This document shows positions 16,664-21,573 of a stretch of DNA of 64,000 nucleotides, piece after piece. How positions within the stretch are numbered: position 1 is the first letter of the stretch; each line of letters begins with the position of its first letter. Source of the stretch: Escherichia coli (GTDB taxonomy: Bacteria; Pseudomonadota; Gammaproteobacteria; Enterobacterales; Enterobacteriaceae); the NCBI RefSeq assembly GCF_017348835.2, contig NZ_CP071375.1. One strand, given 5' to 3'. A program made the translations under genes and the position numbers. The notes beneath the pieces were generated by a model. The model was given only the letters and a program-made list of their open reading frames with translations. It was not told the origin of the DNA and ran no database searches.

Positions 16664-16700
16664 CCCGGCGACAAAACGCCGCCGGGTATTTATTTTATTT
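16664..16700 (+). terminator. Putative fadK terminator in the fadK/ppsA convergent gap
   Basis: Hairpin CCCGGCG-acaaaa-CGCCGGG followed by TATTTATTTTATTT. Confidence 0.5.
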
Positions 16701-19073
16701 CTTCAGTTCAGCCAGGCTTAACCAGGTTTGCACCACGGTGTCCGGATTCAGAGACAGGCTATCGATCCCCTCTTCCATCAACCATGCGGCAAAGTCTTCG
16801 TGGTCGGACGGACCCTGACCGCAAATCCCGACATATTTGCCCTGTTTCTTCGCGGCACGGATAGCCATCGACAGCAATGCTTTCACCGCATCGTTGCGCT
16901 CATCGAACAATTCAGACACCACGCCGGAGTCACGATCCAGACCGAGCGCTAGCTGCGTCATGTCGTTTGAGCCAATTGAGAAGCCGTCGAAATATTCGAG
17001 GAACTGCTCGGCCAGCAAGGCGTTGGACGGGATTTCACACATCATGATGATTTTCAGCCCGTTCTCACCACGCTTCAGCCCCTGACGCGCCAGTTCCTCA
17101 ACCACCGCTTTCGCCTGATCTACGGTACGCACGAACGGGATCATGATCTCAACGTTGGTCAGCCCCATGTCGTTGCGCACACGTTTCACTGCTTCACACT
17201 CCAGCGCGAAACAGTCGCGGAAGCTGTCGGAAACATAGCGTCCCGCGCCACGGAAGCCGAGCATCGGGTTCTCTTCATCTGGCTCATAACGCTCACCACC
17301 GACCAGGTTGGCATATTCGTTCGATTTAAAATCAGAGAGACGGACAATGACGCGCTTCGGATAAAACGCGGCACCCAGCGTCGCGATCCCTTCAGTCAGA
17401 CGACCAACGTAAAATTCACGCGGAGAATCAAAACCTTTCATCATCTCGCGGATTTCGTTTTGCAACTGCGGTTCCTGATCGTCAAACTCAAGCAGTGCGC
17501 GTGGGTGGACGCCAATCATACGGTTGATGATAAATTCCAGACGCGCAAGTCCCACGCCTTCGTTCGGCAGACAGGCGAAGTCGAAAGCTCGGTCCGGGTT
17601 ACCGACGTTCATCATCACTTTCAACGGCAGATCCGGCATCGTTTCTACGCTGGAGCTTTTCACGCTAAATTCCAGCAACTCCGCATAGACGTAACCGGTA
17701 TCACCTTCGGCACAAGAAACAGTGACGTTCTCACCGTCTTTCATCCGTTCTGTTGCATCACCACAGCCCACTACCGCCGGAATGCCCAGTTCACGAGCGA
17801 TGATCGCCGCGTGACAGGTACGACCGCCACGGTTGGTGACGATGGCAGATGCTTTCTTCATGATCGGTTCCCAGTCCGGGTCGGTCATGTCAGTGACCAG
17901 CACGTCACCAGGTTCGATGCGGTTCATTTCGCTGATATCATGGATGACTTTCACCGGACCCGCACCGATGCGATGACCGATAGCACGGCCTTCGGCGATA
18001 ATCTTACCCTGTGAATGCAGCGTATAACGCTCCATGACCTGACCGCGTGAGCGCACGGTTTCCGGACGCGCCTGCACAATGAACAGTTTACCGGTGTGGC
18101 CATCTTTCGCCCACTCAATATCCATCGGGCGACCGTAGTGTTTCTCAATTTGTACGGCCTGTTTTGCCAGTTCCTGCACTTCTTCGTTGGTCAGCGAGAA
18201 GATGTCACGCTGTTCCTGCGGTACGTCTTCGATTTTAACCTGCTTGCCGTGCTCCTGGGTCGGCGCGTAAACCATGCGGATTTTTTTCGACCCCATGGTG
18301 CGGCGCACGATAGCCGGGCGATTCGCCGCCAGTGTCGGTTTATGCACGTAAAACTCATCCGGGTTAACCGCACCCTGCACGACCATCTCACCAAGGCCCC
18401 ATGCGGATGTGATAAACACCACCTGGTCAAAGCCGGATTCGGTATCAATGGAGAACATCACGCCAGATGATGCGAGGTCAGAGCGCACCATCCGTTGAAC
18501 ACCGGCGGAGAGCGCCACACCACGGTGATCGTAACCCTGGTGCACACGATAAGAGATGGCGCGATCGTTAAACAGAGAAGCAAATACATGTTTCACTGCC
18601 ACGAGAACGGCGTCAAAACCCTGAACGTTGAGGAAGGTTTCCTGCTGACCGGCAAAAGAAGCGTCCGGCATATCTTCTGCGGTGGCGGAGGAGCGCACCG
18701 CAAAAGAGGCATTTTCGTCATCAGCGGAAAGCTGTGCATAGGCTTCTCGGATGGCGTTTTCCAGCTCAGGCTGGAAGGGAGTGTCGATAATCCACTGGCG
18801 GATTTGCGCGCCCGCTTTCGCAAGCTGAGTAACATCGTCAATATCCGTTTTATCCAGCAGTTCATAAATGCGCTGGTTTACGCCGCTTTGGTCCAGAAAC
18901 TGGTTAAACGCGTCGGCGGTTGTGGCGAAACCATTCGGAACGGAAACACCCATTCCGGAAAGGTTAGTAATCATTTCACCCAGGGAGGCATTTTTGCCCC
19001 CAACCCTGTCTACATCATTCATGCCGAGTTGGTTATACCAAAGCACCAGCGGTGACGAGCCATTGTTGGACAT
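16695..19073 (-). CDS. ppsA: Phosphoenolpyruvate synthase
   Basis: 792-aa ORF; sequence matches PpsA. Confidence 0.95.
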
Positions 19074-19158
19074 CGAACAATCCTTTTGTGATAAATGAAC
19101 GGTTTGAGAAACACATTTCTGCGCATTTATCTTTGCATATTTAACCGGATGAAAAAAA

Positions 19159-19174
19159 CGGTGAATCGTTCAAG
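19159..19174. promoter_or_regulatory. Putative Cra (FruR) site in the ppsA promoter region
   Basis: GGTGAATCGTTCAAGC resembles the Cra consensus and lies about 90 bp upstream of ppsA. Confidence 0.35.
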
Positions 19175-19405
19175 CAAATATATTTTTTTACTTTTTAAGA
19201 CTGATCCCAGCGTTGCGCAAATCTGCTCTCTTCGACAATTTCCACATAAACCATCGGTATAAACGAAACCATAAAAATGAAATGCTGTTTTCATAAAAAA
19301 TAAAATTGAAGGTTCATTTTATAAACCAGACATAACGTTCTACGCTTCTGTGCGTTTTTAATTTATGCTTTCATAGAATTATGTCTGCATCACGGGAAGA
19401 ACAAA

Positions 19406-20239
19406 ATGGATAATGCTGTTGATCGCCACGTTTTTTATATTTCTGATGGTACGGCAATAACTGCGGAGGTATTAGGACACGCAGTAATGTCACAATTTCC
19501 CGTCACTATCAGCAGCATCACGCTGCCGTTTGTCGAAAATGAGAGCCGTGCACGGGCAGTGAAGGATCAGATTGACGCAATTTATCACCAGACAGGCGTG
19601 CGCCCGCTGGTCTTCTACTCCATCGTGTTGCCGGAGATTCGCGCCATCATCTTGCAAAGTGAAGGCTTTTGCCAGGATATCGTTCAGGCGCTGGTTGCCC
19701 CGCTACAACAAGAGATGAAACTGGATCCAACGCCGATTGCTCATCGTACCCATGGCCTTAACCCTAATAATCTCAATAAATATGATGCGCGCATTGCGGC
19801 GATTGATTACACCCTCGCCCACGATGACGGCATTTCGTTGCGCAATCTGGATCAGGCTCAGGTGATCCTGCTCGGTGTTTCTCGCTGTGGTAAAACCCCC
19901 ACCAGTCTGTATCTGGCAATGCAATTTGGTATCCGCGCGGCAAACTACCCCTTTATTGCCGACGATATGGATAATCTGGTGCTACCCGCGTCGCTCAAAC
20001 CGCTTCAGCATAAATTGTTCGGCCTGACTATCGACCCGGAACGTCTGGCGGCGATTCGCGAGGAGCGTCGGGAGAACAGTCGCTATGCCTCGCTTCGTCA
20101 GTGCAGGATGGAAGTCGCGGAAGTGGAAGCCTTGTACCGTAAAAATCAGATCCCGTGGATTAACAGTACCAATTATTCGGTAGAAGAGATTGCCACCAAG
20201 ATCCTCGATATCATGGGCCTTAGTCGCCGAATGTACTAG
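19406..20239 (+). CDS. ppsR: PEP synthase regulatory protein (bifunctional kinase/pyrophosphorylase)
   Basis: 277-aa ORF, divergent from ppsA. Confidence 0.9.
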
Positions 20240-20250
20240 AGAACTAGTAC
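20233..20250. promoter_or_regulatory. TrpR operator of aroH
   Basis: Near-palindrome GTACTAGAGAACTAGTAC (trp-operator type) overlapping the ppsR stop codon. Confidence 0.6.
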
Positions 20251-20395
20251 ATTAGCTTATTTTTTTGTTATCATGCTAACCACCCGGCGAGGTGTGACAC
20301 ACCTCGCACTTGAAATCAGCAGCGATTGGTTTATCGTGATGCGCATCACTTCCCGGCAGTCCTGCCGTAGAAGCAACAAATTTCTGAGACTTGTA

Positions 20396-21442
20396 ATGAA
20401 CAGAACTGACGAACTCCGTACTGCGCGTATTGAGAGCCTGGTAACGCCCGCCGAACTCGCGCTACGGTATCCCGTAACGCCTGGCGTCGCCACCCATGTC
20501 ACCGACTCCCGCCGCAGAATTGAAAAAATACTGAATGGTGAAGATAAGCGACTGTTGGTCATTATTGGCCCCTGCTCGATCCACGATCTCACCGCTGCAA
20601 TGGAGTACGCCACCCGTCTGCAGTCGCTGCGCAACCAGTACCAGTCACGGCTGGAAATCGTAATGCGCACCTATTTTGAAAAACCACGAACTGTTGTCGG
20701 CTGGAAAGGACTAATCTCCGATCCAGATTTAAACGGCAGCTATCGGGTAAATCACGGTCTGGAGCTGGCGCGCAAATTACTTTTACAGGTAAATGAGCTG
20801 GGCGTCCCAACCGCGACTGAGTTCCTCGATATGGTGACCGGTCAGTTTATTGCTGATTTAATCAGTTGGGGCGCGATTGGCGCACGTACTACCGAAAGTC
20901 AGATCCACCGTGAAATGGCTTCGGCACTCTCCTGTCCGGTAGGTTTTAAAAATGGTACCGATGGCAACACGCGGATTGCTGTGGATGCTATCCGCGCAGC
21001 CCGCGCCAGCCATATGTTCCTCTCGCCAGACAAAAATGGTCAGATGACCATCTATCAGACCAGCGGCAACCCGTATGGCCACATTATTATGCGTGGCGGC
21101 AAAAAACCGAATTATCATGCCGATGATATCGCCGCAGCCTGCGATACACTGCACGAGTTTGATTTACCTGAACATCTGGTGGTGGATTTCAGCCACGGTA
21201 ACTGCCAGAAGCAGCACCGTCGCCAGTTAGAAGTTTGTGAGGATATTTGTCAGCAAATCCGCAATGGCTCTACGGCGATTGCTGGAATTATGGCGGAAAG
21301 TTTCCTGCGCGAAGGAACGCAAAAAATCGTCGGCAGTCAGCCGCTCACTTACGGTCAATCCATTACCGACCCGTGTCTGGGCTGGGAAGATACCGAACGC
21401 CTGGTCGAAAAACTCGCCTCTGCGGTAGATACCCGCTTCTGA
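20396..21442 (+). CDS. aroH: DAHP synthase, Trp-sensitive
   Basis: ORF track 20273..21442; start taken at MNRTDELRTARIESL (348 aa). Confidence 0.9.
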   Translation: MNRTDELRTARIESLVTPAELALRYPVTPGVATHVTDSRRRIEKILNGEDKRLLVIIGPCSIHDLTAAMEYATRLQSLRNQYQSRLEIVMRTYFEKPRTVVGWKGLISDPDLNGSYRVNHGLELARKLLLQVNELGVPTATEFLDMVTGQFIADLISWGAIGARTTESQIHREMASALSCPVGFKNGTDGNTRIAVDAIRAARASHMFLSPDKNGQMTIYQTSGNPYGHIIMRGGKKPNYHADDIAAACDTLHEFDLPEHLVVDFSHGNCQKQHRRQLEVCEDICQQIRNGSTAIAGIMAESFLREGTQKIVGSQPLTYGQSITDPCLGWEDTERLVEKLASAVDTRF

Positions 21443-21533
21443 ATGCGTGCCCATTCCTGATGGGATGGGCATTTCTGCGCAACTTGTTGTCTTCTCAACA
21501 CATTACTGCTTGCTCTGGTCAGCTATAATACTG

Positions 21534-21552
21534 ATAATAAGAATCATTGTTA
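21534..21552. promoter_or_regulatory. Putative Fur box upstream of ydiE
   Basis: GATAATAAGAATCATTGTT closely matches the Fur consensus GATAATGATAATCATTATC. Confidence 0.5.
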
Positions 21553-21573
21553 TATCAATTATTATTAATTTTT

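Follow-up and report, generated by a model that had tools for sequence, protein, structure and literature searches.

A palindrome overlapping the ppsR stop codon in Escherichia coli very probably serves as the classical TrpR operator of aroH

The closest described systems to the site considered here are the operators of the TrpR regulon in Escherichia coli K-12. Operator and -10 region overlap in the trp promoter, where repression is strong. The aroH operator presumably covers the -35 region of the promoter instead, as the classical papers are reported to place it, and its repression is modest. The primary TrpR-binding studies by Kumamoto in 1987 and by Klig in 1988 reportedly covered the K-12 aroH operator, which is also said to have been studied by Zurawski in 1981. 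A comparative-genomics paper states that TrpR regulates aroH negatively and that the interaction is conserved solely in a few close relatives among the Enterobacteriales; this documentation of TrpR binding and Trp-dependent repression concerns the K-12 allele (PMC5343134). Five members of the TrpR regulon were fetched from K-12, and each has the same 18-bp frame upstream, which was scored out of 12 core positions. All 12 core positions are matched by the trp operator (GTACTAGTTAACTAGTTC) and by the aroH operator (GTACTAGAGAACTAGTGC), 10 by the mtr box (GTACCAGTACACGAGTAC), and nine each by the boxes of trpR (GTACTCTTTAGCGAGTAC) and aroL (GTACTAGTTTGATGGTAT). The trpR gene is present in the K-12 genome at a location outside the window, by which the whole 64-kb stretch of E. 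coli DNA under analysis is meant.

The site lies between two genes of well-supported identity on the plus strand. The upstream gene, ppsR (ydiA; 19406-20239), encodes a PEP synthetase regulatory kinase/phosphorylase and was identified from the list of open reading frames, the RefSeq annotation of identical DNA and the NCBIfam equivalog NF049928 (430.6 bits against a cut-off of 350). The downstream gene, aroH (20396-21442), encodes the Trp-sensitive DAHP synthase according to the RefSeq annotation and NCBIfam NF009396 (701.2 bits against a cut-off of 463), and is thus an aromatic/tryptophan-pathway gene of the kind that TrpR operators serve. A longer open reading frame starting at 20273 is not aroH; the annotated start is at 20396, which leaves a gap of 156 bp between the two genes. 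Of 5,426 complete E. coli genomes, 5,422 had a match to a 401-bp query around the site, and the annotation of the matched DNA names ppsR and aroH. In K-12 and in one 100%-identical strain the gene order is ppsA (minus strand), ppsR, aroH, ydiE/hemP and selO. The cluster of divergent ppsA, ppsR and aroH (window 16695-21442) is also syntenic across the Enterobacterales (loci L003-L051, L053, L055 and L079). It brings together a PEP-forming enzyme, its regulator and a PEP-consuming DAHP synthase, along with a CRP site, and may represent a grouping around PEP supply. Adams et al. (2021) have also reported the 3' end of an antisense RNA within ppsR, at about 19609 on the minus strand (K-12 1787648), where no antisense gene is annotated.

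The palindrome GTACTAGAGAACTAGTAC occupies positions 20233-20250. It reads GTACTAG-AGAA-CTAGTAC, with arms of 7 bases each on either side of a non-symmetric AGAA centre, and agrees with the TrpR operator at 12 of 12 core positions, being an 18-bp pseudo-palindrome of the type GNACTAGnnnnCTAGTNC with two CTAG cores 4 bp apart. An extended form with 10-base arms, AATGTACTAG and CTAGTACATT, spans 20230-20253. The stop codon of ppsR, an amber TAG at 20237-20239, sits within the left arm, and the left half-site is made up of this codon and the last Tyr codon of the gene (TAC, 20234-20236). The three end codons ATG TAC TAG all fall within the extended palindrome. The control region of aroH begins 7 nt inside ppsR, or 10 nt inside it when the extended palindrome is counted. 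A first-pass annotation of this DNA had taken the palindrome for the aroH TrpR operator, placed it across the ppsR stop codon and let the aroH regulatory region start within the upstream gene. The last two claims agree with the sequence and the extent of the ppsR reading frame, and the first is upheld by the perfect core match, the likeness to the boxes of the regulon, conservation, and the published regulation of aroH by TrpR. We put the probability that the palindrome is the classical aroH operator for TrpR, lying over the -35 region of the aroH promoter P1, at roughly 0.9. When tryptophan is plentiful, TrpR-Trp dimers would bind the two CTAG-centred half-sites, and the bound repressor would keep RNA polymerase off P1, so that less of the Trp-sensitive DAHP synthase would be made.

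The site stands apart from the rest of the window. A scan of 63,983 window positions with the TrpR core returned one 12/12 match, which is the operator, and the runners-up were seven positions at 9/12. In 100 shuffles of the window there was no match to the operator at three mismatches or fewer. CTAG occurs nine times against about 250 expected from base composition, a depletion of about 28-fold, and two of the nine belong to the operator, which also carries the sole CTAGnnnnCTAG in the window. A loose form of the motif, GNACTNNNNNNNNAGTNC (GNACTN8AGTNC), was found 12 times with one mismatch allowed against 14.6 expected. Because the loose motif is at chance level, only the perfect operator match is meaningful.

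The operator in this window is a rare allele, as seen from the alignment with K-12 and from allele-specific 37-mers. Over 221 bp, K-12 and the window differ at one position, 20249, where the window has A on the plus strand and K-12 has G, so that 17 of the 18 operator bases are identical. Allele-specific 37-mers place the K-12 form GTACTAGAGAACTAGTGC in no fewer than 4,793 of the 5,426 complete genomes and the window form in three (two pig isolates and one bovine isolate). A spacer variant with AAAA for AGAA is found in about 106 genomes. The 18-bp core is otherwise invariant in the sampled E. coli lineages, and variable positions are concentrated immediately 3' of it, at 20251-20259. The A at 20249 converts the sole GCAC outer half-site among the K-12 operators into the GTAC that most of them have. 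It gives the right half-site CTAGTAC, which most other genera have, so that the window allele resembles a reversion. The 18-mer that the first-pass annotation described as a palindrome is present; its perfect outer symmetry (GTAC...GTAC) is owed to the rare allele and is not usual for E. coli. The same change shifts the putative -35 hexamer from AGTGCA to AGTACA, raising its agreement with consensus from two to three of six positions.

For comparison between genera, 80 AroH loci were fetched. Directly upstream of aroH and on the same strand, ppsR was found in every Enterobacterales locus examined, including those lacking a TrpR box; it is not upstream of aroH in the loci of Vibrio, Photobacterium and Aeromonas. 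A box of the form GTACTA[G/A]nnnnCTAGTAC starts exactly 4 nt 5' of the ppsR stop in about 24 Enterobacteriaceae loci, from Escherichia, Citrobacter, Pseudocitrobacter, Enterobacter, Lelliottia, Pluralibacter, Cedecea, Shimwellia, Siccibacter, Phytobacter and Mangrovibacter, and the intergenic sequence around it diverges among these loci. The stop codon in box-bearing loci is TAG in Escherichia and C. youngae, which gives a perfect CTAG, TAA in most others, which gives an imperfect CTAA left half-site, and TGA in Shimwellia. TAG was also considered as a marker of the operator and rejected, given that it ends ppsR in Rouxiella, Serratia plymuthica and Budvicia, which have no box, and that most box-bearers use TAA. 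Likewise, a 9/12 box at the same offset in Budvicia was rejected, its left half coming free from coding sequence and its right half matching at three of six positions.

The end of PpsR, with the residues R-R-M-Y/F before the stop, is conserved throughout the order, and it is also found in genera that lack the right half-site (Yersinia, Serratia, Rahnella, Erwinia, Pantoea, Proteus and Providencia). On this ground the left half-site is probably ancestral coding sequence, next to which the Enterobacteriaceae would have gained the right half-site (CTAGTAC) and a -10 element on the downstream side. In all 24 loci with the box the final Tyr is encoded by TAC, and the Tyr-ending loci without an overlapping box are divided between TAC (five) and TAT (four). 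These counts, from loci that are not phylogenetically independent, are suggestive of an operator that constrains the synonymous choice of TAC in ppsR. The overlap itself is an outcome of compact gene packing and not a separate regulatory device. It is also not obligatory, since one Enterobacter locus (L015) has a TrpR-like box, GAACTAGTAAGCTAGTAC, about 20 nt past the ppsR stop without overlap, and 10/12 boxes of the type GTACTAGTAAnAAAGTAC lie 60-126 nt past the stop in Hafnia and Edwardsiella (L024, L048 and L051). Going by these boxes, TrpR control of aroH may reach beyond the strict Enterobacteriaceae in a form that does without the overlap.

The predicted promoter P1 lies at 20257-20274 on the plus strand and consists of a T-rich spacer, TTATTTTTTT (20257-20266), and an extended -10 element with TG at 20266-20267, a T, and TATCAT at 20269-20274. 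The extended -10 element begins 16-18 nt 3' of the operator. A 17-bp spacer would put the -35 hexamer, AGTACA, at 20246-20251, within the operator. P1 was not called in a scan with the consensus promoter, which missed it because this hexamer is weak at 3/6. Support for P1 comes from the aligned Enterobacteriaceae, most of which have a -10-like hexamer trailing the box at a similar spacing of about 15-18 nt. Transcription from P1 is predicted to start at about 20281-20282, in keeping with the placement of the operator at the -35 region that is attributed to the classical papers, and the transcribed leader would accordingly measure about 115 nt. The first-pass annotation had given the leader as about 145 bp, a figure that holds as the distance from the end of the operator (20250) to the aroH ATG (20396) and not as the length of the transcribed leader. 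Entries for aroH, ppsR or ydiA were absent from the Cappable-seq, ROSE, SMRT-Cappable-seq and TERMITe tables that were searched. An Rfam scan of 19300-21700 at E <= 1 gave no match, so the leader holds no known RNA element. A structured attenuator spanning the leader was also considered and dropped, the fold of the whole leader being not unusually stable (z = -1.1).

A second promoter-like element, P2, was called by the consensus scan at 20310-20337 on the plus strand, with TTGAAA (20310-20315), a 16-nt spacer and TATCGT (20332-20337). P2 outscores P1 in the scan and is more widely conserved. In 38 Enterobacterales loci, the first hexamer reads TTGAA[AT] in 30, and T1, A2 and T6 of the second are present in all 38. 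It overlaps, and starts directly upstream of, a CRP-type palindrome at 20335-20350, CGTGATGCGCATCACT (cGTGATGCGCATCACt), recognized by motif and conservation. This palindrome has the TGTGA-N6-TCACA symmetry in the form cGTGA-TGCGCA-TCACt, and its core, GTGATnnnnATCAC at 20336-20349, occurs once in the window. Conservation between the two genes peaks not at the operator but at 20309-20356, in which TTGAAA-N16-TATCGT is followed by GTGATGCGCATCAC. The CRP palindrome lies 51-68 nt (mostly 58-61) 5' of the aroH ATG in the 38 loci, which include Yersinia, Serratia, Rahnella, Budvicia, Proteus and Providencia, all without a TrpR box, and also Hafnia and Edwardsiella. Haycocks et al. (2015) have reported a CRP ChIP-seq peak at aroH in ETEC H10407, where the predicted site is the exact sequence of 20335-20350 and a second predicted site under the peak, TGCGAGGTGTGTCACA, is the reverse complement of window 20293-20308 (PMC4287617). 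On the plus strand this weak CRP-like site, TGTGACACACCTCGCA (20293-20308), coincides with a stem-loop at 20287-20307, a few nt into the predicted P1 transcript and near its 5' end, with a folding energy of -15.6 kcal/mol (z = -4.1). Other genera have different sequences at this position, which are also stem-loops or CRP-like sites. Just past the CRP site, at 20354-20367, there is also a small hairpin or palindrome, CGGCA-GTCC-TGCCG, in an Enterobacterales-conserved TTCCCGG..GCCG block.

P2, conserved across the order, may be an ancestral aroH promoter, outside TrpR control. Because this better-scoring and more widely conserved element lies downstream, TrpR perhaps controls only part of aroH transcription. 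We infer that an older, CRP-associated promoter module stood beside aroH throughout the order and that the TrpR-controlled P1 was added upstream of it in the Enterobacteriaceae. Such an addition would make sense of the long P1 leader, and the modest degree of repression by TrpR could have the same cause.

Several further readings concern transcription that arrives from ppsR. The one that survives best, though we consider it unlikely, is an operon-like coupling in which read-through from ppsR supplies a substantial share of aroH mRNA, raising aroH expression or occluding P1, and in which bound TrpR also acts as a roadblock. The two genes are on the same strand across a 156-bp gap, and as no strong terminator lies between them, read-through into aroH is plausible. 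PpsR and AroH are both involved in PEP metabolism, and their adjacency holds in all Enterobacterales loci examined, with or without a TrpR box; conserved adjacency alone, however, is no proof of co-transcription. The published 3'-end and operon datasets that were searched hold no entries for a ppsR-aroH transcript. In addition, aroH has promoter elements of its own, one of them conserved order-wide, so it needs no transcription from upstream.

Somewhat less likely again is a dual use of the palindrome, which in the ppsR mRNA would form a hairpin followed by a U-run and act as the intrinsic terminator of ppsR, with transcripts ending in the aroH promoter spacer. The terminator scan did list a terminator-like hairpin on the plus strand at 20226-20266, with a 10-bp A/U-rich stem and two outer G-C pairs followed by UUAUUUUUUU, and it found no other terminator-like site in the ppsR-aroH interval. 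The RNA hairpin of the operator folds at -13.5 kcal/mol (z = -4.7 against shuffles), and U fills nine of the next ten bases if the two outer G-C pairs are counted. However, the 10-bp stem has three G-C pairs, and UUAUUUUUUU adjoins it only when the two weak outer pairs form across an internal loop; otherwise a 3-nt gap separates them. The background of the scan is also high, chance alone predicting 1.4 sites locally, where one was found, and 21 +/- 4.6 in 19 kb, where there were 28. The combination of hairpin and adjacent U-tract is not conserved, the U-tract being present in E. coli and roughly so in C. youngae and E. albertii and absent from the other genera, which are most of those that keep the operator. 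Polymorphisms within E. coli strike the outer arm of the hairpin. Among the entries listed by Adams et al. (2021), Term-seq gave no plus-strand 3' end for ppsR or aroH, a result that depends on the thresholds used and on the low expression of ppsR, and none at the site itself or elsewhere in K-12 1788280-1788329 and 1788340-1788349. The T-run is equally well explained as the A/T-rich spacer of P1. Under the dual-use reading the structure would be masked by ribosomes completing ppsR, whose stop codon is in the 5' arm, and read-through would then be favoured.

In a further reading, for Escherichia, the 41 bp of 20226-20266 would serve in three ways: as the final codons and stop of ppsR, as the aroH operator with the -35 region and spacer of P1, and, in the ppsR mRNA, as a weak, translation-sensitive intrinsic terminator. 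Ribosome release at the stop codon and occupancy by TrpR would then together set whether ppsR transcription ends in the aroH promoter or passes it, a scheme that we regard as improbable. The weakest reading is that of a chance palindrome from the coding end of ppsR with no regulatory role, for which it can be said that the left half is dictated by the coding sequence Met-Tyr-stop and is conserved even in genera without the right half-site, but which is effectively refuted because the non-coding right half-site is conserved between genera whose flanking sequences have diverged, and against which the uniqueness and motif statistics in the window and the documented TrpR regulation of aroH also stand. 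The classical operator of aroH remains the preferred reading of the palindrome.

TrpR control through this operator is textbook knowledge. That it overlaps the end of ppsR is already known, can be read from any annotated E. coli genome and involves no novel mechanism, so that little is at stake in the identification as such. The overlap does illustrate a repressor half-site built from the last codon and the stop of a neighbouring gene, an arrangement that appears to fix a synonymous TAC across a bacterial family. It also has a practical side. Recoding or tagging of the PpsR C-terminus, or a swap of TAG for TAA in genome-recoding projects, changes the aroH operator.

Overall, the site compares as follows with the systems described at the outset. 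With the trpEDCBA operator it shares the 18-bp architecture, the two CTAG cores 4 bp apart and the 12/12 core; the centre is TTAA there and AGAA here. The K-12 aroH operator occupies the same locus and position, and the window allele differs from it in restoring the full outer symmetry GTAC...GTAC. The trpR, mtr and aroL boxes of K-12 have the outer GTAC...GTAC frame in common with the aroH operator. Unlike it, they are degenerate, with nine or ten of 12 core positions, and lie fully within intergenic DNA, none of them borrowing the stop codon of a neighbour. Regulatory sites within the 3' end of an upstream gene are described from compact bacterial genomes, and the aroH operator likewise begins in the preceding coding sequence. 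It differs from such embedded sites in general in that the stop and the last codon themselves form the half-site, with the synonymous TAC fixed wherever the overlap exists.
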